Source of the DNA: a virus
Length of the DNA stretch: 60,542 nucleotides
Virus record (IMG/VR): IMGVR_UViG_3300027721_000017
Reading direction: 5' to 3' (one strand)
The notes beneath the pieces are model-generated. The model was not told the DNA's origin. It did not search any database and saw nothing but the letters and a program-made list of their open reading frames with translations. How positions within the stretch are numbered: position 1 is the stretch's first letter; each line of letters opens with the position of its first letter. This document shows, piece after piece, positions 1 through 38,826 of this stretch. The translations under genes were made by a program, and so were the position numbers.

Positions 1-1304
1 TGCTGGTACATCATCGCGCCTTGCATGCCCGCCGTGTCCATGATGCCGCGGACGCTCGTACCCGCCATCTTGGAGTACATCCGGGCTTCCATCGCCATGT
101 CCATGGTCTCGCCAATAGACAGACCCATCTGTCGTGCCTTGCCCATTGACTTCAGGGCTTCGACGACGTTGGGTTCGTTGGCGATCTTCATGAAGCTGAC
201 TAGGGACTTTGCGATGGTTTTCACGCGGTCGTGGATTTGATCAACCGACTGCGTGTCGTTCAACATCCCCTGCTGCCCCGCCACATTTGTGATTCGGGTG
301 AGGTCCTGGGCGGAGAATGCCCCCTGCGTGTCGCGCTTGAACTGCGTGCTGAACGCAGTGTCCTCCAATTTCCTTCCGAGGTGGGTGGCGCCTTGAATGC
401 TCAGGCCGCGGCCTGTGGTCATGTTGAGATCGGGACCACCCCCAACCCAGGTTTGTGACGCTCCCAGCATTTGCTGGCCTCGGATGGCCATCGTGCGGAA
501 GGGGTTCAGATTGTCCGTGATGTGCTGAGCTGTGGCCCCGAGGCCCAGGTGTTCGGACCCCATGGCTCCCGCGAGCGCGCCGATGCCGCCGCCGATGAGA
601 GCGCCTGTCGGACCGAAGCGAGCTCCGAGGGAGGCTCCGATCCCCGCGCCCATGGCGCCAAAGCCGATGTCAGCCGCTCCTCGCGCTACGACTCCCGGTG
701 TCGCAAACAGCGCCCCTGTGCGCCGCTGCCCTGCCTGGATCGCCATGTTGTTCGAGAGCTCCATCGGAGTCTGGAACTGTGGTGGCGGAGGCATCGGGGT
801 GAAGGGCGTTTGAAACAACGGCATCTGCGGAAACGGTGAAACCGTCGGTGCCTGCGGTGGCTGGAAGGGTCGGTAGATCCCCATTCCTGGCGTCGTCATC
901 ATCGCCGGGTTGGGCATCATCCCCGTGTTGAAGCCTCCGCCGAAGCCTCCCATCATCCCCATCATCTGCGCGGAGTAGGGGCTGAGTTGCTGAGACTGAA
1001 TCCCGGCCATGTTCTGCTGGTACTGTTGGGAGAACGCGCCTATAGCGCCCATCCCTATCCCGCCTCCTCCGCCCCCGCCGAAAGCCATTCCGCCCATGCC
1101 GCCCAGCCGCATCGCGGAGGTCGTTTGGAGGGTGGTCGCCATCTGCGTCTGGGTCTGGCGGACGATGTCCTGGGAGATGTCGCCAGGGTGCCGCACCATG
1201 GGTGGCGCCGGCGGAGCCGGTGTTGCGATCCCGAGGGGGTTGAAGCTTCCACCTTGCCCGACGAGTCCCAACTGCGCCTGCATCGAGTTGAACTCGTCCG
1301 CCAT
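1..1304 (-). CDS. Hypothetical Gly/Met/Pro-rich protein, N-terminal ~434 codons only; the gene runs off the window at position 1
   Basis: By-eye translation of the minus strand from ATG (complement of 1302-1304) gives an uninterrupted frame to position 1 (MADEFNSMQAQLGL...GGFGGGFNTGMMPNP...). The stop of the upstream gene (1308-1310) lies 3 nt from this ATG. It is missing from the ORF track, presumably because it is truncated by the window edge. Confidence 0.45.
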   Translation of the reverse strand, partial: MADEFNSMQAQLGLVGQGGSFNPLGIATPAPPAPPMVRHPGDISQDIVRQTQTQMATTLQTTSAMRLGGMGGMAFGGGGGGGIGMGAIGAFSQQYQQNMAGIQSQQLSPYSAQMMGMMGGFGGGFNTGMMPNPAMMTTPGMGIYRPFQPPQAPTVSPFPQMPLFQTPFTPMPPPPQFQTPMELSNNMAIQAGQRRTGALFATPGVVARGAADIGFGAMGAGIGASLGARFGPTGALIGGGIGALAGAMGSEHLGLGATAQHITDNLNPFRTMAIRGQQMLGASQTWVGGGPDLNMTTGRGLSIQGATHLGRKLEDTAFSTQFKRDTQGAFSAQDLTRITNVAGQQGMLNDTQSVDQIHDRVKTIAKSLVSFMKIANEPNVVEALKSMGKARQMGLSIGETMDMAMEARMYSKMAGTSVRGIMDTAGMQGAMMYQ

Positions 1305-7804: not shown

Positions 7805-8251
7805 ATGCCCATGCCGACAGGCCCATTCAAGCCGAAGCTATTCATTGGTCTCGATGGGCCTGTTTTGGTCCCTTCAGCTAACCCGATTGACCGCGATGAG
7901 TACCTCGGCGCCGCGGTCGCGCCGTACGCCAAGTCCTTCCTGCATTGGGCGACACAACACTTCGACGTGCACTGGCTCTCTGATCGCGGGGCCGTCCCCG
8001 CAGCCTACGTATCAAATCTCCTGGCTCTCCCAGCGGACAAGGTCCGTATCTCGGGGTTCACGGACTCCAAGGTCGAAGCTCTCTCTCCTCACAAAAACTT
8101 CTACTGGGTCGACTCAGAACTGATTCCCCATGAAGTTTCCTGGTTGGCGCAACATGGTCACGTGGACCGCCTGATCTCGGTTGACCCCCGCGAGGGGGTG
8201 TCCACGGACGCTAAGAAAGCGCTTGAAGCGCGTGTAGCAAACCACCGGTAA
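7805..8251 (+). CDS. Hypothetical protein (148 aa)
   Basis: Track ORF. Start sits 3 nt after the upstream stop. Confidence 0.55.
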   Translation: MPMPTGPFKPKLFIGLDGPVLVPSANPIDRDEYLGAAVAPYAKSFLHWATQHFDVHWLSDRGAVPAAYVSNLLALPADKVRISGFTDSKVEALSPHKNFYWVDSELIPHEVSWLAQHGHVDRLISVDPREGVSTDAKKALEARVANHR

Positions 8252-8257
8252 ACAATC

Positions 8258-8554
8258 ATGTCAGATGAAGTGATCCTTTGCGCGGATTGTCGTTCAGAGT
8301 TCCCCTTTACCGAGAGCGAGGCAACGTTCTTCGCGTCCAAGGGGTTGACGAAGCCGCGGCGGTGCAAGCCCTGCCGCCAGAAGCGCCGCGACGCCAAGGC
8401 TACCGATATTGGTGCCGCTCCTGGTCCTACTCTCGCTGCTTCTCCCAAGGCCAGGACCCAGTGGGTTGGTGGTGGGGAGACTGAGGAGCCCCGCCGCAGC
8501 AAGGGCGGGCGTCGGGATCGCCGGCGTGACCGGCACGACGATCAAGGCTTCTAA
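8258..8554 (+). CDS. Zinc-ribbon protein with basic C-terminus (CADCRSEF...CKPCRQKRR)
   Basis: Cys pairs and Arg-rich tail in the translation. Confidence 0.55.
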   Translation: MSDEVILCADCRSEFPFTESEATFFASKGLTKPRRCKPCRQKRRDAKATDIGAAPGPTLAASPKARTQWVGGGETEEPRRSKGGRRDRRRDRHDDQGF

Positions 8555-16732: not shown

Positions 16733-17890
16733 ATGAAACCGTTGACCAGCACCACCGAAGACCTGAAGCCCGACAAGATGCTTCCGACGCTCTACAAGAA
16801 GACGAGCACGGGGGCTGACCAGATGTGGAGCATCGGCACCTACCGAAACGTCATCATCACCCAGTTCGGCCAAGTCGGAGGGAAGATTCAGGAGACCCAC
16901 GACATCGTCAAAACCGGGAAGAACATCGGCCGGTCCAACGAGACCACCGCCATCGAGCAGGCTGAGCTCGAGGCCAGGGCGCAGTGGGAGAAGAAGAAGA
17001 CGGCCAAGGGCTACGTCGAGTCCTTGAGCGATGCCAGGAAGGGGAAGCGTGACGCCCTCGTCGCGGGCGGCATCGACCCGATGCTGGCTCACCGCTTCGA
17101 CGAGCAGGGCCACAAAATCGTGTACCCCGCACTAGCACAGCCGAAGTTCGACGGGCATCGCTGCATCGCAGTTGTATCCGCTGGAAAGTGTACCCTCTGG
17201 TCCCGTACACGGAAGCCCATCACTGGCCTGCCCCACATCATTCGGGATATCGAGTTCTGGGCCGAGAGCCGGGGGCAGCGGGACCGCGTGCTAGACGGGG
17301 AACTCTACAACCATGACTACCGGGAAAAGTTTGAGGAGCTCACCAGCTTCATCCGGAGTGAAGATCCCAAGCCGGGACACGAAGTCGTTGAGTACCACAT
17401 CTACGACGTAGCTGGCCCCGACTCTTTCGTGGACCGTCACGCGATTCTCAAAGCGTTCTCCTTGCACGGCGCCATGCGCTGCGTCGAGACCGTCGCAGTC
17501 ACCGATGAAGACGATCTCATGCTCACCTTCGAGCGGTTCTTGGTACAAGGCTATGAAGGATTGATGGTCCGAAACATGGCGGGCGAGTACGTCAACAAAC
17601 GCTCGTACGACCTTCAGAAGGTGAAGGAGTTCATCGACGAGGAGTTCGTCGTCATCGGCGTCGAAGAGGGTCGCGGCAAGTTGGCGGGCCACGGCATCTT
17701 CGTCTGCAAGACTCGCGACGGCGTTGAGTTTCGAGCGAAGATGATGGGCGAGCTCGAGAGCCTCAAGCAGTATTACGAGAACCCCAAGGCTGTCGTAGGT
17801 CAGCTGCTGACTGTCAAGTTCCAGGGGTACACGGCGAAGAACGGCGTTCCCCGATTCCCGGTGGCGCTACGCATGCGGGAGAACATCTGA
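16733..17890 (+). CDS. ATP-dependent DNA ligase (small phage T7-like type)
   Basis: Adenylation motif I KFDGHR (AQPKFDGHRCIAV). Motif IV-like EGLMVRN. Motif V-like DLQKVK. About 385 aa. Confidence 0.85.
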   Translation: MKPLTSTTEDLKPDKMLPTLYKKTSTGADQMWSIGTYRNVIITQFGQVGGKIQETHDIVKTGKNIGRSNETTAIEQAELEARAQWEKKKTAKGYVESLSDARKGKRDALVAGGIDPMLAHRFDEQGHKIVYPALAQPKFDGHRCIAVVSAGKCTLWSRTRKPITGLPHIIRDIEFWAESRGQRDRVLDGELYNHDYREKFEELTSFIRSEDPKPGHEVVEYHIYDVAGPDSFVDRHAILKAFSLHGAMRCVETVAVTDEDDLMLTFERFLVQGYEGLMVRNMAGEYVNKRSYDLQKVKEFIDEEFVVIGVEEGRGKLAGHGIFVCKTRDGVEFRAKMMGELESLKQYYENPKAVVGQLLTVKFQGYTAKNGVPRFPVALRMRENI

Positions 17891-22360: not shown

Positions 22361-23056
22361 CTAGCGACGGTTCTTCTTCTCGAAGAAGCTCGGCTTGGCG
22401 GCGGGGGCTGCTTCAGGAGCAGCCTCGGGGGCTTCCTCCTCTTTCGCCTCGCTGGCAGGCGCGACGACCTCAGGCTCCACAGGCTGCGTGACGACAGGCT
22501 CCGGCGTCGGAGCGGGAGGGGGAGGAGCCACAGGCTCTGGGGGCGCCGCCACCTTCGCCACTTCGACGACAGGGGACGTCGTGCCGACGCTGAAGTTGAG
22601 CCAGCCTGCGCCCTTGAGCTTCTCGAGTCCGGGAGTCAGAAGTCGAAGCTGGCCCTCAGTGACCTCTACCGTCTTTGTCTCTTTCGGCGCCAGCGGGAAC
22701 GTCAGGTAGCCAGGGTCTCCGACCATGACGGTTGATGCGAACGTGCTCGTGAGAGTCAGCTTAGGCATTGTTGATCCTTTGTTTGGGCGCACTGCGCAGG
22801 TGACACAAGGCTCATCATATCGTCGAAGGAGATACAAGAGAAACTCTTTTACGTGTTCTCGGCGGTACAACTCCGCTAGGGGAATTCCGTTTTCTACGGC
22901 GTGATCTATGAGGTTGAAGAAATGATCTACCCTCTCTTCCGGGGAGAGTTTTAGGTCCTTCCAAGCGTAATTCCCGGTTATCGGCACGGCCAAGTATAGG
23001 GCTAGGCCTCCGGCGTTACCTCCTCCGCGGCTTTGGGGAACAAGAGGCTCCAGCAT
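22361..23056 (-). CDS. Hypothetical protein with a Pro/Ala/Glu-rich linker and basic C-terminus; start uncertain (internal ATG ~22768 possible)
   Basis: Track ORF. The listed start overlaps the upstream gene by 54 nt. Confidence 0.4.
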   Translation of the reverse strand: MLEPLVPQSRGGGNAGGLALYLAVPITGNYAWKDLKLSPEERVDHFFNLIDHAVENGIPLAELYRREHVKEFLLYLLRRYDEPCVTCAVRPNKGSTMPKLTLTSTFASTVMVGDPGYLTFPLAPKETKTVEVTEGQLRLLTPGLEKLKGAGWLNFSVGTTSPVVEVAKVAAPPEPVAPPPPAPTPEPVVTQPVEPEVVAPASEAKEEEAPEAAPEAAPAAKPSFFEKKNRR

Positions 23057-23499
23057 TCAGGGGCCTTGAGTACGACGCCGAAGGCGCTCAGAGCCTCGCT
23101 GACTGAGACATCGTCGTCGATGATGATGAAGCCGTTGTCGCGGTTCTCGAGCCCCTGCTTGAAATTGAGCAGTTGCTCCCGCTTGTACTCGGCTGCGTTG
23201 AGCATGTTCCCGTTGGGCCGCATGAGCAGGTGAGTGTCGGGCAGGGCGAGGTTCAGCTTCTCGAGCATCCAACGCATCGTCGTGTCTCGGAGATCTTCAT
23301 TTCGCCCGGTCAAGATGATGATGTCGTACTTCAGCTCTTGGAACTGTGTGAGTACGCGCTCCGCTCCGGCGATGACCGTGTCTTTGATGACGAGGTCTGG
23401 CGCGAAGAAGGCGTCCCAGTTCTTGGGCTCCTTCTCTACGTGGTGCGAGCGGTGAGCATTGTCAGCGAGGGTCTGGTCTAGATCAAGGACTACGAACAT
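23002..23499 (-). CDS. HAD-superfamily phosphatase (polynucleotide 3'-phosphatase / 5'-nucleotidase-like)
   Basis: HAD motif I VLDLDQTLA (DxDxT), ILTGR and DDD motifs. About 165 aa. Confidence 0.65.
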   Translation of the reverse strand: MFVVLDLDQTLADNAHRSHHVEKEPKNWDAFFAPDLVIKDTVIAGAERVLTQFQELKYDIIILTGRNEDLRDTTMRWMLEKLNLALPDTHLLMRPNGNMLNAAEYKREQLLNFKQGLENRDNGFIIIDDDVSVSEALSAFGVVLKAPECWSLLFPKAAEEVTPEA

Positions 23500-24177: not shown

Positions 24178-26325
24178 TCAATCGTTTTCAGGTTGACGAA
24201 GCATCTGTCGAACCTGCTGGTTCAGCTGCTCTTTTCGAACGCCCATCTCGTCGAGGTACTCATCGACGCCGTAGCCCGGTTTCCGCAGGCCTACGCGCTC
24301 CAGGAGCCCTTGTGGCGCTCTGGTGGCTAGGTACCGCTGCACCAGCACCTTCCGCTCCTCTGGAGGCAAGTCAGCGTGGCTTCGGTACCGGATTCCGCGG
24401 CCAATGACCTGCTTCAACTTCTCCTGGTTCCAGTGCGGCTCGAGGAGCTGGATGAGACGCGTACCTTTGAGGTCCAACCCCTCCCCGCCAGCGCTGGAGA
24501 GGAGCAGGGCTTTGAGCTTACCCTCGTTGTAGTCGCGGACCATCTGTTCACGCGTGCCTCGCGCCATAGCACCGGTGAAGGACCCGTGTGGAATGTTGAG
24601 CTCTTCGAGCCGCTTCTTGTACGGGTCAATCCCTGACTCGAGGTAGTGCGAGTAGATGATAGCTTTCGCGTTGGGGTTCTTATCAAGCATACCCTGAAGC
24701 TCTTGAACCGCTTTGTCGATTTTGGGCTGGCTCGGTGGAATGACGCTTGTGTCGAAGCCACGGGTCGTGTTTGAGATCTGCCGGACCCCGCTCAAGAACG
24801 AGTTGAGCTGCTTCGCTTCTGCTTTGGTTGGCGGAAGGTTCTGAAGGACTTTATTGCGCACCCAGCTGGGCTGGTCCGCCGTGACGTGTTCGTACAGCTT
24901 CATCTGCGCGCTGGTCATCGGCACGTTGACCGTTTGATCCTCCCGTGTAGGAAAGTTCTCCGTGCTCCCCGGGTAGAAGTCGACGTACTTGTCGAGGACC
25001 TTCTGCAGGAACCCTGTGGCTCGCGGGTTCAGACGGGTCTGGTACGACGCGGGTGTTCCTCGCAGGCGCTGCCACAGACTCCGCTCATTGGGGATGTCTT
25101 GCAGAAATCGTTGGCTGAATTGTTCCGGGTCCTCTGGCAGAACGTATCTACCCGCGACCAGGTTGATCGGTCCTGCGACATCCGACGGGTGGTTGTACAG
25201 GAGGGAGCCGGTCAAGGCTAGGCGCTTGCCCGCGGGGGAGGCCATCAAACCTTCGCGTGTCTTTCCAGGGTTCCGCGTCCGGTGGGCTTCATCCACGATG
25301 AGCAGGGGATTCTTCAGCGTCGATCCCCCGCTCCGCGCGACCCCCTCGAGGCTTTGGATGTTCGTGGCGGTAGGGCCCCGCGTATGAGCTTTGAGCTCCT
25401 TACTGTAGTTCCCTTGGAGCGCCGCCGGAGTCACAACGTCGGCAGGAAGGCCCAGCGCATCTGCTACGGCGATGCTCGTGAGCGTCTTTCCGGACCCCAG
25501 CCCGTGAACAGCTACGAGCCCCGGTTGATCGTCATCCTCCATGCGATCCACGACCCGCTGCTGGTGTGGCTTGAGGCGTGTAGTGATTTTCGCTGTTTTC
25601 TCGTTGTCCTTCTCTTCCCGGCGCTTCTTCATGAACTTCTTTACGCCGGTGATCGCCAACGGAGCTAGCGCATGCGCGAGGTACGTTCCATACGCGGGAA
25701 GAAGTACGGAGCTGTGGAGAAGCCCTTTCCCGAGTCCGTACTTCCCGACCATGTGTGCCACTGCGCGAGCGGAGGCCAGGCCTTCATCCAGCAGCAGCGG
25801 TGAGGAGAAGGCCAGCGATGCGAGTCCAGGAGCCCAAGAAGGATCCTTGGAGGCCGCTGCGTAGATGGACGCCGCCGGGACGCTGTACGAGGTTATCTTG
25901 TCCGCTATGTTGTGCCCGGCCACGTAGGCGAGGGGCGGAAGCATTTGGCTGTTGAGGTTGTGCCCCATTTCATGCGCGGCGACTGCTTCACCTACGCCGC
26001 TGGGCAGCTGAATGCCGCGCCACCAACCGAATGGCCCCTTTCCTACTATCGCTGCGGGACTCCCAGCGTAGTATCGGTCGACATCCCCGCCCATCTGATA
26101 GCGTAGCCAGCGCTTAGAGAAGAGCTTTTTGTCCAGCGGGCTCATCAAGTGGTAGAGCGCGGAAGCCGGCTTGTGCGCGTGCCGTTGCACGAGATATCCC
26201 GCGGCCCCAGCGCCTACGGTCTTAGCAACCTCTTTGGCCTTTTCCGCCGTCGAGCTTTCCGGCTTCTCATCTTTTTCTTCGCGCTTGGCGAGCTTGAACC
26301 GATCAAGCATGGGCGTGCTGGTCAT
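24178..26325 (-). CDS. SNF2-family helicase/ATPase with an N-terminal ~250-aa domain carrying a HExxH metallopeptidase-like motif
   Basis: N-terminal AAHEMGHNL. Walker A GLGSGKT. DEAH-like LIVDEAHRTRN. Helicase C motif LLSSAGGEGLDLKGTRLIQLLEPHWN...QVIGRGIRY. Confidence 0.85.
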   Translation of the reverse strand: MTSTPMLDRFKLAKREEKDEKPESSTAEKAKEVAKTVGAGAAGYLVQRHAHKPASALYHLMSPLDKKLFSKRWLRYQMGGDVDRYYAGSPAAIVGKGPFGWWRGIQLPSGVGEAVAAHEMGHNLNSQMLPPLAYVAGHNIADKITSYSVPAASIYAAASKDPSWAPGLASLAFSSPLLLDEGLASARAVAHMVGKYGLGKGLLHSSVLLPAYGTYLAHALAPLAITGVKKFMKKRREEKDNEKTAKITTRLKPHQQRVVDRMEDDDQPGLVAVHGLGSGKTLTSIAVADALGLPADVVTPAALQGNYSKELKAHTRGPTATNIQSLEGVARSGGSTLKNPLLIVDEAHRTRNPGKTREGLMASPAGKRLALTGSLLYNHPSDVAGPINLVAGRYVLPEDPEQFSQRFLQDIPNERSLWQRLRGTPASYQTRLNPRATGFLQKVLDKYVDFYPGSTENFPTREDQTVNVPMTSAQMKLYEHVTADQPSWVRNKVLQNLPPTKAEAKQLNSFLSGVRQISNTTRGFDTSVIPPSQPKIDKAVQELQGMLDKNPNAKAIIYSHYLESGIDPYKKRLEELNIPHGSFTGAMARGTREQMVRDYNEGKLKALLLSSAGGEGLDLKGTRLIQLLEPHWNQEKLKQVIGRGIRYRSHADLPPEERKVLVQRYLATRAPQGLLERVGLRKPGYGVDEYLDEMGVRKEQLNQQVRQMLRQPEND

Positions 26326-26578
26326 CTGTGTCTCCCCCGCAGACCGCGCAGGTTCCGATTGCTTGGCCTAGGCTCACGTTCGCCTCAGTTCGGACGACGG
26401 GTTCTTTGGTTCCTGGGTCCAAGTACATCGTAGCATGCCCCTGTATCTCAACGTACGAGGTTTCGATTCGGCGGCCGTCAGCGTACTGTACGACGAACGA
26501 TGTCTTCCGCGGTAGGCGCTTGATTGTGATCTTCTTCACCTTCTCTTCTCCCGCCCCGAGTCGCTTTGTCCGACGCAT
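26303..26578 (-). CDS. Small hypothetical protein (91 aa)
   Basis: Track ORF. Confidence 0.45.
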   Translation of the reverse strand: MRRTKRLGAGEEKVKKITIKRLPRKTSFVVQYADGRRIETSYVEIQGHATMYLDPGTKEPVVRTEANVSLGQAIGTCAVCGGDTDDQHAHA

Positions 26579-26581
26579 ACG

Positions 26582-26935
26582 TCATTCCTCCACCGCAGCG
26601 TACAGGGCCTGCAAGCTGAACGGTTTACTCAGTAACGTCGCCTCGCCGGTATATTTTTCTTTGATCTCCGAGACTTTGAGGACTCCGGACATGATGACGA
26701 CGTGGACGCCTTTGAGGAGGCCTCCTTTTCGAAGAACGTCGAGCATCTCGAGCCCGTCGCTGTTGGGCATGGAGATGTCCGTGATGAGAACCTCGGGGCT
26801 GTGCAGCATGAATCTTGCGACTCCGTCAACACCGTCTTCGGCTTCTAAGACCGTGTAACCACCTCGCTTGCTCAGAGCGTCATGCACCAGCCGTCGGATG
26901 ATTTTGTCGTCGTCGACGACCAAGGCGGTCTTCAC
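26582..26935 (-). CDS. Stand-alone CheY-like response-regulator receiver domain protein (117 aa)
   Basis: All canonical receiver residues are present: VVDDD (acidic pair), LITDISMP (phospho-acceptor Asp), VVIMSG (Ser/Thr), LSKPF (Lys-Pro). GTG start. Confidence 0.8.
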   Translation of the reverse strand: MKTALVVDDDKIIRRLVHDALSKRGGYTVLEAEDGVDGVARFMLHSPEVLITDISMPNSDGLEMLDVLRKGGLLKGVHVVIMSGVLKVSEIKEKYTGEATLLSKPFSLQALYAAVEE

Positions 26936-26970
26936 CCCGCAAGTGTAGGTCCGTACGCCCGTAAAAGGGG

Positions 26971-26990
26971 GTCGTTTTGGGTATAAGCCC
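26971..26990 (+). promoter_or_regulatory. Promoter-like motif GTCGTTTTGGGTATAAGCCC
   Basis: As above. Lies 25 nt before the TTG start at 27012. Confidence 0.45.
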
Positions 26991-27011
26991 CTGCACCCAA
27001 AGGAGGCTGCA

Positions 27012-27272
27012 TTGACGATTCACGTTACGAAGGATGGGACGCCTACCGTGTTCGATGGTCCGAAGGCGGTCAATTTTTTTCGCATGAACGTCCTGCTCCA
27101 GGGGATGAGGACGGAGCTCAAAACCGGGATGAGGATGTCTCGAGGCCCTTCGTGCTTCACTCGCGTGAAGCAGGAGTACGGACTCAAGGGAAACAAGCAG
27201 AAGTTGATTGAGCAGTTCGAGAAGCTGATCGCCGAAGAGAACGAGAAGATGGAGTACAAGCGCGATGCCTAA
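27012..27272 (+). CDS. Small hypothetical protein (86 aa)
   Basis: AAAGGAGG RBS before TTG 27012. GGGTATAAG promoter-like motif 25 nt upstream. Confidence 0.5.
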   Translation: MTIHVTKDGTPTVFDGPKAVNFFRMNVLLQGMRTELKTGMRMSRGPSCFTRVKQEYGLKGNKQKLIEQFEKLIAEENEKMEYKRDA

Positions 27273-27909
27273 CTGGTGCGAGTGTTTACTCAAGGTCACA
27301 GGTCCTGCGAAAGAGATCGCGAAGTTCAAGAAGAAGGCAAAGGGTAAGGGTCCCAACCCCGTCAAGGGAGATAAGACGTTTCCGTTGTCTCTCCACGCCC
27401 TCGTGCCGCAGCCTGCGAAGTTCAAGAAGGAAGGTTCCGACTGGTACAATTGGCGCCTCGCCAACTGGGGCACCAAGTGGGCCGTCGATTCCCGGATCGT
27501 ACAGGAGGACAAGGAGCTGGTGGAGTACGGCTTCGATTCAGCCTGGGCTCCGCCGATGGAGTGGCTCGCTCAGGTTGGCCCGAAGTTCCCGAAGCTTTCT
27601 TTTCGCCTCTGGTACGCCGAAGGCGGCTGCGACTTCGCGGGCGTCTACACGGTGGAAGACGACCACGCGAGCAACGAAGAGAAGGACTTCATCGAAGCGC
27701 AAATAGAGGAACGTGGGAGCTACCAGGTCTGCTGCGGCTACTGCGACAACGAAATGGAGATCACCTCGAAAGACGAAGCACGCATCTGTGAGGAGTGTCT
27801 CCAGCACCGCTGTGACAACTGTGGCAAACAAGACGACGTCCACGTCGACGGGAAGTGCCCCTTCGATTCAACGAAGTTCAAGAACATCTCAGCGGAGAAG
27901 ATCAAATGA
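27265..27909 (+). CDS. DUF1281/YubB (Api92-like ferredoxin-fold) family protein with C-terminal CCHC module
   Basis: MPNWCECLLKV...WYNWRLANWGTKWAVD matches the NWGTKW signature as recalled. C-terminal CDNCGKQDDVHVDGKCPFDSTKF. Confidence 0.6.
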   Translation: MPNWCECLLKVTGPAKEIAKFKKKAKGKGPNPVKGDKTFPLSLHALVPQPAKFKKEGSDWYNWRLANWGTKWAVDSRIVQEDKELVEYGFDSAWAPPMEWLAQVGPKFPKLSFRLWYAEGGCDFAGVYTVEDDHASNEEKDFIEAQIEERGSYQVCCGYCDNEMEITSKDEARICEECLQHRCDNCGKQDDVHVDGKCPFDSTKFKNISAEKIK

Positions 27910-31565: not shown

Positions 31566-32627
31566 ATGAGCAAGGACGCAATCGAAGTGATCTTCAGTTT
31601 CGACACTACCGGGTCAATGTACCCCTGCCTGACGCAGGTTCGCCGCGAGGTCAAAAAGACAGTGAAGCGTCTCTTCAAGGACGTCCCTGACATCCGGGTG
31701 GGAGTCATCGCGCACGGGGACTATTGTGACGCTGGGTCTACGTACGTCACCAAGCACCTCGACTTCAGCACGGACCAGAAGAAGATCGCCGACTTCATCA
31801 CCAACGTGAAGCCGACGGGCGGCGGTGACGCAGCTGAGTGCTACGAGCTCGTGCTGCACGAGTCCAAGACGTTCAGCTGGTCAGCAGGCAAGAAGAAGGT
31901 TCTCGTACTCATCGGCGATGACGTGCCGCACGGGAAGAACGAGGCGCAGAACACCAAGAAGTTGGACTGGCGCAACGAGCTCAAGCTGCTGCTCGAGGCG
32001 GGTATCCAGGTCTACGGCGTTCAGGCCCTGAACCGGAAGCACGCGACGAAGTTCTACGAGGACATCGCGGAGGAGACGGGCGGCTTCCACCTGGAGCTCG
32101 ACCAGTTCTCCAGCATCACCGACATGATCTTCGCGGTCGCCTACAAGCAGCAGGGAGACGACAAGCTCAAGGAGTTCGAAGAAGAGCTGAAGGCTGACGG
32201 TCGCCTGAACCGTTCGATGCGCCGGAGCTTCAACCGGATGCTCGGGCGCAAGGACGAGGCGGCGTCGAAGAGCAACCTGGACGCTGTTCCGCCAGGTCGC
32301 TTCCAGATGATGAAGGTGGACGACGACACGCCCATCTCGGAGTTCGTTCGCGCCCAGGGCGTCGAGTTCAAGACGGGCCGCGGCTTCTACGAGTTCACCA
32401 AGTCCGTGAAGGTGCAGCACTACAAGGAAGTCATTCTGCAGGATCGCGCGACAGGAGATTTCTACTCGGGCGACAAGGCTCGGGATATCGCTGGCATGCC
32501 CATCGGCGAAGATGCGACGGTGAAGCCCGGGGATCTCGGCGCTTACCGCTGCTTCATCCAGAGCACCTCGAACAACAGGAAGCTTCTCGGCGGTACGCGA
32601 TTCCTGTATGAGGTCTCCGACTACTGA
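31566..32627 (+). CDS. von Willebrand factor type A (vWA) domain protein
   Basis: MIDAS-like DTTGSM. Rossmann-like alternation. VLVLIGDDVPHG. 353 aa. Confidence 0.75.
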   Translation: MSKDAIEVIFSFDTTGSMYPCLTQVRREVKKTVKRLFKDVPDIRVGVIAHGDYCDAGSTYVTKHLDFSTDQKKIADFITNVKPTGGGDAAECYELVLHESKTFSWSAGKKKVLVLIGDDVPHGKNEAQNTKKLDWRNELKLLLEAGIQVYGVQALNRKHATKFYEDIAEETGGFHLELDQFSSITDMIFAVAYKQQGDDKLKEFEEELKADGRLNRSMRRSFNRMLGRKDEAASKSNLDAVPPGRFQMMKVDDDTPISEFVRAQGVEFKTGRGFYEFTKSVKVQHYKEVILQDRATGDFYSGDKARDIAGMPIGEDATVKPGDLGAYRCFIQSTSNNRKLLGGTRFLYEVSDY

Positions 32628-33615: not shown

Positions 33616-33687
33616 GGCCCCATCGACTAAGGGCTAGGTCGCCACCCTTTCAAGGTGTGAATCCGGGTTCGAATCCCGGTGGGGTCA
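33616..33687 (+). tRNA. tRNA-Glu (TTC anticodon)
   Basis: Acceptor ggcccca/tggggtc (one G-U). Anticodon loop ctTTCaa. T-arm ccgggTTCGAATcccgg. Confidence 0.75.
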
Positions 33688-33806
33688 CATGTCCGAATGT
33701 CCGAAGCACAAGCACCTCACTGACAAACAGATCCAAGCGATAACGGAGACCGAGGCCGCGGTGTGCGCCTGGCTCTGGGTTCGCTGGTGGATCCTTCGAG
33801 GAACAA

Positions 33807-36514: not shown

Positions 36515-36727
36515 ATGATCGACGGTTGTCAAAACTGTCATCACGATAAGTCAACGCACCTACCCGACGGCTCCTGTCTCTTTGAGCCGACGAAGTTCAA
36601 GCCGTACCCTTCGATATACATTACGACCGGGCGCCTCAGCAGCAGCGAGCCCAACATCGCGACACTCCCGAAGAAGAAGCAGGACCGTTGGGAAGCTGTC
36701 TGGAAGTTTCTGACCACCCCTTTGTAA
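36515..36727 (+). CDS. Small protein with N-terminal CCHC module (MIDGCQNCHHDKSTHLPDGSCLFEPTKF)
   Basis: Internal ATG 36515. Motif shared with four other genes. Confidence 0.45.
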   Translation: MIDGCQNCHHDKSTHLPDGSCLFEPTKFKPYPSIYITTGRLSSSEPNIATLPKKKQDRWEAVWKFLTTPL

Positions 36728-36735
36728 GAGGAACA

Positions 36736-38826
36736 ATGATCCCGAACACCCAACTCCGGCTCGTGTCGTCGAGTCCTATCGCCGAGAGCGCCGAATTCGG
36801 CATCTCGATGAACGACACGGCTCACATCATGTCGATTCTCCGAGACCAGCTGTACTCGGATAAGATTCTCGCGGTTCTCCGCGAGTACGGCTCCAACGCC
36901 TGGGACGCCCACCGAGACGCCGGAAAGGCGGAGCTCCCCATCAAGGTGACGTTGCCCACGGCGATGGAGCCGACGCTGACAATCCGAGACTTCGGCCAGG
37001 GGCTCACTCCCGAGGGCGTCTTCAAGGTCTTTACGCAGTATGGCGCCAGCACGAAGCGGAACAGTGACAACTCCGTGGGCATGCTCGGCATCGGTTCGAA
37101 GAGCGGCTTCGCCTACTCCGACAGCTTCACCGTCACGTCGTACTGTGAGGGCATGAAGCGGACCTATGTTGCGGTCCTGGACCCGTCAGAGAAGGGGATC
37201 ATCAATCTTCTGTGCGCGGAAGGCTGTGGCGAAGAGACAGGGGTCGCGATTTCAATCGCGGTGCGGCCCGCGGACCTTCGCAACTTCGAGCACACCGCGA
37301 AGACGCTGTTCAAGTACTTCGTCCCACGCCCGGACATCAACACGGAGCTGCCCCAGCTTCCCCCGGCGCAATCGACTCTGAAGCACGGAGTCATCTACGA
37401 GAAGGAAGAGGGGTACTACAGCGACAACAAGTGGGTCGCTGTCATGGGGTGCGTTTCGTACAACGTCAACCTCGATCAGCTTCGAGGTATCGACGCTACG
37501 CCTGAAGGAGGAGTCGCTTCCTTCCTGAGCGGTATATCGGGGGCCCTCTACTTCGACATCGGAGAGGTGCAGGTCAGCGCCTCTCGCGAAGAGCTAAAGT
37601 ACAGCTCGGAGACCAAGCTGGCATTGGTCAAGAAGTTCAGCGAGCTCGTCGAAGAGTACGTGAAGAAGGCTCTTGACGACATCATGCTGAAGACGAACAC
37701 CCCTTGGGAACGCCGAGTCAAAGCCCAGGTTCTGGGCAAGCTTCATCTCCCGGTTCCTCAGGATACGAAGGACCTGCTCTCCACGAATGTGGCGCTGAAG
37801 GACAAAATCCCCGCGGGCATCGTCATCACGCAGAATCGTACGCACTGCACCAGCATCGCGGTCAACGAAGGAACTCGCTTCGTTCTGGTAGACGATCAGC
37901 GCGCCCTCCCCGGGTTTCAAGGAATGCACTACACCGATTACTTCATCCGAGCCGTAGACAAGGCGGGGCACTTCCGCACAGCGCACATCCAGTGGGATCC
38001 TATCGAGCTCAAACTCAAAGAGATGTGTAAGGCGGCGGACATCGAAGGTATTCCCGTCATCAAGCTGTCGTCTCTCCCGTGGACCACTCCGTCACGCAAC
38101 GCCACAGGGCGGACGATCAACCCGAAGCACCGGATGAAGGTCTTCAAGTTTCTGCCGGAGGAGGGCTACAGCAAACCCTGGTCCGACTCTTGGGAACCAG
38201 CGGACATCGTACCGTCGAAGGATGATGTGTTCGTCCTCATCCAGTGGTTCCAGACCCAAGGGTTCAACATGGGAGAGTACTACCGAGCGGACAAGGCACT
38301 GGCTGAGGCGTTCGGAGGAGCTCTCCCGACGATCTACGCCTACAAGACGACTGAGAAGAAGCCCGTTGAATCGAAGGACTGTCTGGGTACGTACTACCCG
38401 GATTGGCGCAAGAAGTGGGTCCCCACACTGCTCACGCAGCAAGTGAAGGATCAGTTCTCACTGCTCCAGTGGGTTCAGCTTGCCAACAGCTCGCCGCACT
38501 ACTGGCGGTATCGGAACGTGGACAAGAAGATCTACGACAAGATGGTGGCGGAGCTCGGAGAGACGCACCTCATCACACTGATGGTGAAGAACATCTACGA
38601 AGGGCAGGCGTACTTCAAGAAGTACCCGAAGTTGCAGCCCGCTCTCGCGCAGCTCGAGAACAGGGCGCCAGGCGTGACTGTCAAAGACAGCCCGGCGCAG
38701 AAGACGCTGGAGACGCTCACGAAGAAGTATCCGCTGCTCACCCTCGAGAACCTTTGCATCGCAGATGTTTGGGGAGAGCGCGCCGCGGACTGGGTGCAGT
38801 ACATCAAACTCATCGACAAAGGATAG
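36736..38826 (+). CDS. GHKL (Bergerat-fold) ATPase domain protein, 696 aa; possibly rIIA-like
   Basis: N box EYGSNAWDA. G1 IRDFGQGL. G2 GMLGIGSKSGFAYS (Hsp90/MORC-like order). AGAGGA RBS before ATG 36736. Size and domain order resemble T4 rIIA (about 725 aa, N-terminal HATPase) as recalled. Confidence 0.55.
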   Translation: MIPNTQLRLVSSSPIAESAEFGISMNDTAHIMSILRDQLYSDKILAVLREYGSNAWDAHRDAGKAELPIKVTLPTAMEPTLTIRDFGQGLTPEGVFKVFTQYGASTKRNSDNSVGMLGIGSKSGFAYSDSFTVTSYCEGMKRTYVAVLDPSEKGIINLLCAEGCGEETGVAISIAVRPADLRNFEHTAKTLFKYFVPRPDINTELPQLPPAQSTLKHGVIYEKEEGYYSDNKWVAVMGCVSYNVNLDQLRGIDATPEGGVASFLSGISGALYFDIGEVQVSASREELKYSSETKLALVKKFSELVEEYVKKALDDIMLKTNTPWERRVKAQVLGKLHLPVPQDTKDLLSTNVALKDKIPAGIVITQNRTHCTSIAVNEGTRFVLVDDQRALPGFQGMHYTDYFIRAVDKAGHFRTAHIQWDPIELKLKEMCKAADIEGIPVIKLSSLPWTTPSRNATGRTINPKHRMKVFKFLPEEGYSKPWSDSWEPADIVPSKDDVFVLIQWFQTQGFNMGEYYRADKALAEAFGGALPTIYAYKTTEKKPVESKDCLGTYYPDWRKKWVPTLLTQQVKDQFSLLQWVQLANSSPHYWRYRNVDKKIYDKMVAELGETHLITLMVKNIYEGQAYFKKYPKLQPALAQLENRAPGVTVKDSPAQKTLETLTKKYPLLTLENLCIADVWGERAADWVQYIKLIDKG

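Follow-up and report, generated by a model that had tools for sequence, protein, structure and literature searches.

A family of stand-alone receiver-domain proteins with a conserved, putatively phosphorylatable active site in large myovirus-like phages

The window (the whole stretch of viral DNA that was analyzed, 60,542 nucleotides of IMG/VR record IMGVR_UViG_3300027721_000017) contains a leftward operon whose first gene encodes a receiver domain. It is followed by a 91-aa ORF, a gene for an SNF2 helicase, small ORFs and a PNK/HAD gene. The principal features are listed below.

26582..26935 (-), stand-alone receiver (REC) gene, 117 aa, GTG start and TGA stop
26303..26578 (-), gene for a 91-aa clade-specific protein with 33 homologues, separated from the receiver stop codon by a 3-nt gap
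24178..26325 (-), SNF2-family helicase, third gene of the operon, with the Pfam domains SNF2-rel_dom and Helicase_C (PHROG_62)
23002-23499, PNK/HAD phosphatase (polynucleotide kinase)
26936-27011, divergent intergenic region of 76 bp, shared by the receiver operon and the + strand genes starting at 27012

An earlier note, made from the sequence alone, had placed a phage-borne, CheY-like receiver of 117 aa at 26582-26935. This ORF was borne out on the minus strand, where it begins with a GTG at 26935-26933 and ends with a TGA at 26584-26582, the stop codon being included in the coordinates. A 176-aa ORF on the opposite strand, 26328..26858 (+), was rejected as the shadow of the receiver gene.

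The predicted protein matched the Pfam model PF00072 (Response_reg) with 68.1 bits (E 9.3e-19), compared with a curated cut-off of 30.2 bits. Receiver residues 5-116 of 117 were aligned with profile positions 2-111 of 111. Because the match spans the entire profile and nearly all of the 117 aa, there is no space for an output domain, as the note had claimed. PDB chains were searched using phmmer and the best matches were E. coli CheY variants (E 4e-14). D8/D9 aligned with CheY D12/D13, D53 (in LITDISMP) with D57, S83 (in MSG) with T87, and K104-P105 with K109-P110. The active-site quintet is complete, comprising the acidic pair D8/D9(/D10), D53, S83 and K104(-P105), and all residues that the note had assigned to phospho-chemistry fell on their CheY counterparts. 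An AlphaFold (AF2) model built from the family alignment (pLDDT 86.8, pTM 0.84) has five strands and five helices that alternate from b1a1 to b5a5 in a (beta-alpha)5 arrangement. Foldseek aligned the model with solved receiver domains at TM 0.80-0.85; VicR, RssB, Spo0F, RR468, CheY4 and DivK were among the matches (TM ~0.8). The predicted structure, like the profile, supports a receiver. The protein appears to be a genuine single-domain response regulator capable of phosphorylation.

The chemotaxis leaning of the earlier note was not supported. NCBIfam models for the receivers of RpaB, CpdR, NtrC and RssB scored at the same level as CheY, and all NCBIfam equivalog cut-offs were missed by >100 bits. 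CheY orthology was rejected with 55.5 bits against a cut-off of 189 for NF007901 and 45.4 bits against 200 for NF041367. L101, three positions ahead of the Lys and corresponding to the switch residue Y106 of CheY, is Leu in 90% of the family, and the T+1 position is Gly. No cheA, cheW, MCP or flagellar switch genes were found among the 83 ORFs of the window (25 Pfam families listed) or in ~20 kb of a relative.

A word-indexed search of 5.8 billion proteins identified 50 receiver homologues with 56-98% identity, all of them ~117 aa apart from mis-called starts. One seemingly truncated member (P0049) is complete with a GTG start. Beyond these 50 proteins there is a sharp break, 117 bits being followed by 60 bits (≤47% identity). 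When all 1.84 billion 50%-representatives were scanned with HMMER, just 3 family representatives (57-66% identity) emerged; all other top matches were multi-receiver proteins with 26-39% identity, whose score sums several domains. The matches listed from 185,579 bacterial and archaeal species genomes (one per species) included no family member. The best of those listed was 41% identical, and the best cellular matches were spread over unrelated phyla (31-41%). The next relatives outside the family, whether cellular or viral, have ~40% identity at most. Family members are found on contigs of up to 190 kb that are syntenic with the window, and the family appears to be confined to one clade of large (~168-190 kb) myovirus-like phages.

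Conservation was examined with an alignment of 51 family sequences, in which mean column identity was 44%. T52, D53, M56, P57, D60, G61, S83, G84, K104, P105 and F106 are invariant, and conservation is 98% at each of D8, D9 and D10. Among the structural elements, conservation is highest in the active-site loops, b1, b2 and a2. Helix a1 retains I13, R14, V17, A20 and L21 while its other positions vary. Helix a4, part of the usual output face of receivers, is the most variable element, with an entropy of 2.3 bits, and the part modeled with least confidence. Pairwise dN/dS among five DNA copies was 0.10-0.34, which are rough values with synonymous sites near saturation, and the family is under purifying selection. 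Receiver GC follows that of the genome, with 0.50 in a low-GC relative (L004) versus 0.56-0.59 in the others, which argues for long residence in phages. Divergence of the receiver between genomes resembles that of neighboring genes. By these measures it is a long-resident, vertically inherited phage gene, with no sign of recent pickup from a host.

Many single-domain receivers are adaptors, and the phage protein might likewise be an atypical receiver or a CpdR-like protease adaptor that works unphosphorylated, in an adaptor or structural role. CpdR and RssB are indeed among its top NCBIfam models, though they are as weak as CheY and fall short of their cut-offs by the same >100 bits. Although the 51 sequences are otherwise free to vary, D8, D9, D53, S83 and K104 show 98-100% conservation, a pattern expected only where phospho-chemistry is in use. 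A role independent of phosphorylation is therefore improbable, and we consider it a slim prospect.

The gene lies within what is the DNA-metabolism (early/middle) part of the genome. Two further landmarks are listed here.

36688-38826, rIIA homologue
16733-17890, ATP-dependent DNA ligase

The window also encodes two helicases, a denV-type glycosylase, an M15 peptidase, 9 tRNAs and a one-piece tmRNA. It is homologous to IMG/VR viral contigs of 168-190 kb, and the next block of one of these contigs contains genes for baseplate J and a VanY peptidase. That the receiver is encoded by a phage, as the note had proposed, is supported by this gene content (rIIA, DNA ligase, PNK, two helicases, tRNAs and tmRNA) and by the homologous contigs. 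Megablast with 12 kb of the window detected no similar GenBank phage DNA. With tblastn the receiver had matches of ≤37% in GenBank phages, many of them on mislabeled bacterial contigs, and searches with rIIA and the helicase found only distant relatives (26-39%) in isolated phages. From its sequence the genome belongs to an uncultured clade of large myovirus-like phages. The binning of one helicase homologue with a Gemmatimonadaceae MAG hints weakly at the host. The closest full-length relative (L090) encodes a sigma-70-like factor at 396-1097 (-) (Sigma70_r3, E 4e-9), ~9-10 kb beyond the start of the window, and the clade probably redirects host RNA polymerase with its own sigma factor.

Several other genes of the window deserve mention. 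An 894-aa protein at 13002-15686 (+) has eukaryote-type Major Vault Protein domains (MVP_shoulder E 1e-22, Vault_3 E 8e-10, Vault repeat E 7e-7). Its GC3 is very high (0.89), it has no PHROG match, and a homologue with 68% identity occurs in a related contig (L002). The tmRNA at 10605-10975 (+) is one-piece (Rfam RF00023, 115 bits) with a tag peptide that seems over-long in ARAGORN; it is followed by a tRNA cluster (Met, Ser, Gln, Ala), and tmRNAs occur at the same place in the relatives L090 and L092. A second tRNA cluster adjoins a VWA-domain gene at 31566-32627 (+), whose product is 96% identical between the window and the relative L001 while neighboring proteins are 70-85% identical. A 73-nt tRNA at 33616-33688 (+) has the opal-suppressor type anticodon UCA. 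It was called SeC by ARAGORN and an ordinary tRNA by Rfam (54 bits), and it is absent from the equivalent tRNA clusters of L001, L002 and L004. Despite this tRNA, TGA is the commonest stop codon in the window (43/82 ORFs).

The phage was then examined for a partner kinase. The Pfam scan covered 83 ORFs over the 60.5-kb window and 25 families are listed, 7 weaker single-member families (E > 1e-4) having been left out. Response_reg occurred once. None of the 25 families listed for the 83 ORFs was HisKA, HATPase_c, Hpt or a Che family, and the note's statement that no partner kinase is encoded nearby holds for the window. The single GHKL match was HATPase_c_3, which is presumably rIIA. HisKA, HATPase_c and Hpt were also absent from 7.6 kb of a related genome beyond the window and from a further 13-kb block. 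In total ~83 kb of a ~190-kb genome contained no histidine kinase or HPt, although a phage kinase could lie elsewhere in the remaining ~107 kb. Given the lack of a kinase or HPt in the parts of the genome that were read, a phosphoryl group derived from the host is most likely.

The note had suggested that the receiver could be a phosphate sink or decoy. An abundant early receiver would compete with a response regulator of the host for a host kinase, CheA or another, drain off phosphoryl groups and silence chemotaxis or a stress or defense pathway. Bacteria have single-domain regulators of the sink type, such as Sinorhizobium CheY1. The phage protein would fit this role, being one domain with its pocket intact and having no kinase gene in ~83 kb, and the conserved a1 anchor residues I13, R14, V17, A20 and L21 would face the DHp or P1 domain of a kinase. 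However, the protein has no specific affinity to CheY (55.5 versus 189 bits, with RpaB and CpdR equal), and a sink does not need a tight, conserved operon with two phage proteins. The family also spans phages of differing base composition, which makes one specific host kinase unlikely. We regard a sink or decoy as possible but on balance rather unlikely.

The operon was compared in the window and four related loci (L001-L004). L001, L002 and L003, the last being the most divergent member, share with the window the gene order receiver, small ORF, helicase, and synteny of the receiver, 91-aa ORF and helicase is thus found on four independent contigs. In all four the frames abut or overlap. The 91-aa ORF overlaps the helicase start by 23 nt in the window, and overlaps in the relatives are 11-23 nt. 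In L004 the receiver and helicase abut and the small ORF is absent. In the window and L001 the receiver TGA is followed by one codon and then by the in-frame ATG of the 91-aa ORF (26576-26584, -), and read-through of this TGA would yield a 210-aa two-domain protein. Read-through with the phage tRNA(UCA) was rejected as a conserved feature since this frame holds in the window and L001 only, the frames differ in L002 and L003, and tRNA(UCA) is absent from the fetched parts of the relatives.

All 33 homologues of the 91-aa protein (60-100% identity) are on contigs of the same phage clade, and many of these contigs, as matched by their length, also contain the receiver. The protein is more conserved than the receiver, with mean column identity of 78% versus 44%. 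A basic N-terminal tail precedes a small all-beta core (residues 15-69), and C77-x2-C80 ... D-Q-H-A-H-A at the C-terminus is invariant; the overlap with the helicase start may account for part of this C-terminal invariance. No family match was found in Pfam, PHROGs, NCBIfam or PADLOC. The AF2 model (pLDDT 75.8) has a small all-beta core with disordered tails and matched no fold in the PDB.

The helicase family is much broader than the receiver family. A Rosetta-stone test found 0 receiver-SNF2 fusions among the best 120 helicase homologues, in which the varied N-terminal additions included a ligase, DUF5661, a C39 peptidase and an intein. Judging from these gene orders, the slot upstream of the core helicase is variable, and the receiver together with the 91-aa ORF is best described as an insertion into it that is specific to this clade. 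The helicase of the window has an extra ~225 aa at its N-terminus (25651-26325, -) with no Pfam match and a HEMGH motif of the HExxH metalloprotease-like type at 25960-25974. The HExxH is kept in the other two long helicases (P0099 and P0100) and is absent from the 480-aa versions (L001, L002 and L004). Among isolated phages the closest helicase homologue (39% identity) is that of Salmonella phage Arash (OQ632216.1, 141261-142679); its gene immediately follows one annotated as DNA-directed RNA polymerase subunit beta. The Arash gene order hints at a transcription-linked role for the helicase family.

These observations bear on a second use of the phospho-state, an internal switch of the phage. 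The receiver would sense host energy or phosphate status through acetyl phosphate or a host kinase, and phosphorylation-dependent binding to the 91-aa protein, the helicase or both would gate phage DNA transactions or transcription. The abutting or overlapping frames in the window and L001-L003 are consistent with such a switch, as are a highly conserved 91-aa protein limited to the same clade as the receiver and the RNA polymerase subunit gene beside the Arash helicase. Other observations are less favorable. L004 has the receiver and helicase but not the 91-aa gene, no fused receiver occurs among the best 120 helicase homologues, and the slot upstream of the helicase is variable (ligase, DUF5661, C39 peptidase, intein fusions), which means that the two genes may be neighbors by position alone. 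The 91-aa protein also offers a fold with no known relative in the PDB. We therefore consider an internal switch unlikely, even though a conserved, translationally coupled operon suggests a phospho-switch with a phage partner at least as much as it suggests a sink. A more elaborate version, which we hold to be speculative and doubtful, joins the receiver, the 91-aa beta/Cys-His protein and the SNF2 ATPase in one phage signaling module that would read a host phosphodonor and switch a DNA-remodeling or transcription step by direct binding.

Expression of the operon was examined through the divergent intergenic region, which has two conserved elements.

26942..26947 (-), TACACT hexamer (TANNNT, -10-like), 6 nt upstream of the conserved GTG
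26975..26987 (-), motif CTTATACCCAAAA, conserved in five loci and read on the + strand as TTTTGGGTATAAG

In the upstream alignment CCTACACTT (TCTAAACTT in L004) has identical spacing to the GTG in 5/5 loci, i.e. the window and L001-L004; the hexamer in L004 is TAAACT. No Shine-Dalgarno sequence was found between hexamer and GTG in the five loci. A conserved TANNNT 6 nt before the GTG with no Shine-Dalgarno suggests that the hexamer is the promoter -10 of a leaderless or very short-leader receiver mRNA. A generic sigma-70 consensus scan did not flag the TACACT hexamer. The second motif, CTTATACCCAAAA, is kept even in L004, whose neighboring gene differs, and TTTTGGGTATAAG (with TATAAG) is probably the -10 of a divergent promoter for the + strand genes from 27012. 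An upstream motif, CTTATACCYRAAA, was rejected as a general phage promoter with one exact copy in the window. The divergent neighbor at 27265-27909 (+) encodes a DUF1281_C / Api92-like ferredoxin-like domain with a Cys-rich C-terminus, and in L003 and L004 a dCMP deaminase is in the neighborhood of the divergent gene.

Taken together, the explanation that we favor, by a modest degree of confidence, is that D53 is phosphorylated by a host donor and that the receiver acts through binding or phosphoryl withdrawal. Transcription would proceed from the divergent control region (26936-27011), and the receiver would be the first product of an operon shared with the 91-aa protein and SNF2 helicase. 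D53 would be phosphorylated during infection, with the phosphoryl group coming from cross-talk with a host histidine kinase or HPt, or from acetyl phosphate. Two points weigh against this explanation. The phages with the family range from 50 to 60% GC and probably have different hosts, and a widely conserved host donor or acetyl phosphate would therefore be required. Helix a4, which would be part of the output face, is the least conserved element. Having no output domain, the receiver could use its phospho-state only by binding another protein or by withdrawing phosphoryl groups from the host; the output would thus be phosphorylation-dependent binding of a partner or drainage of a host pathway. 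The sink or decoy and the phage-internal switch are both forms of this explanation, and what is left of it belongs to other host targets.

Phages are known to tap host signaling, as in quorum sensing, and to make small inhibitors of two-component systems. If host kinases or acetyl phosphate donate to this receiver, lytic phages eavesdrop on or jam two-component signaling with a borrowed receiver. If it accepts no such phosphate, it is one more annotated accessory gene. A signaling module with the 91-aa protein and helicase, if true, would be a viral 'host-state sensor' made from a two-component part and with a new type of output. The family is a good test case, being small, under selection and limited to one phage clade, with at least 50 natural variants and a fixed operon.

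How does the phage receiver compare with known systems? It has the fold, the five active-site residues and the size of the bacterial single-domain regulators CheY, Spo0F, DivK and CpdR (PF00072), and like them it has no output domain. It differs from them in reaching no named subfamily cut-off, in having Leu for the aromatic switch residue and Gly at T+1, and in being encoded by a phage with no kinase, HPt or che neighbors in the window. In CheY the aromatic switch Y106 is coupled to Thr87, whereas the phage receiver has the conserved L101 there. Membership in a defense system was rejected with no PADLOC match for the receiver or 91-aa protein. The helicase had weak generic SNF2 similarity to DrmD, DpdE and PbeA (≤35 bits).

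Large phages have another small Rec-fold protein, cREC (PF20274), the cyclic-phosphate-processing Rec of jumbo phages, which is a predicted enzyme and not a phospho-acceptor and which lacks the conserved Lys-Pro (PMC7824862). A cREC-like phosphoesterase acting on cyclic phosphate or ADP-ribose ends in RNA repair or NAD conflicts (Iyer et al. 2021) would have no part in signaling. The PNK/HAD phosphatase and ATP-dependent ligase nearby would suit such an enzyme, and in the more distantly related phage L088 (194-kb contig) a cREC gene at 7963-8301 (-) lies ~600 bp from a homologue of the SNF2 helicase. In that phage a 1269-aa LigD_N/ligase/DUF5661 protein occupies the receiver's slot upstream of the helicase. 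Nevertheless, the receiver matched PF00072 and not PF20274, and its profile showed no detectable similarity to the L088 cREC past the first strand (hhalign probability 1.2%). It also has the Ser/Thr and Lys-Pro of classical receivers, both lacking in the L088 cREC sequence. Identity with cREC was rejected, and a cREC-like function is extremely improbable.

Virus-encoded receivers have been annotated elsewhere. PhoB in Alteromonas phage R8W (PMC8228385), phoB/phoR in soil phages (PMC10987575), and CheY, CheR, MCP and other two-component parts in phages of ammonia oxidizers (bioRxiv 10.64898/2026.05.02.722434) are known by annotation only. JGI labels members of the present family 'CheY-like chemotaxis protein'. 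PHROG 731 and 5982, receiver-containing groups with no assigned function, match the receiver through the generic domain alone. In the literature searched we found no functional study of any phage-encoded single-domain receiver. A viral structure library yielded ~25 virus-encoded receiver domains, including a 149-aa protein of Alteromonas phage vB_AmeM_PT11-V22, a 122-aa Hokovirus protein, 'CheY-like receiver' proteins of uncultured Caudovirales and hybrid kinases of EsV-1/FirrV. Several of these are short and stand-alone like the phage receiver, to which they are 19-27% identical. The receiver described here is no sporadic, host-like pickup but forms a vertically inherited family of its own, with at least 50 members and a conserved operon. 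What makes it worthwhile is an old, clade-specific family with an active site under selection and a fixed operon partner.
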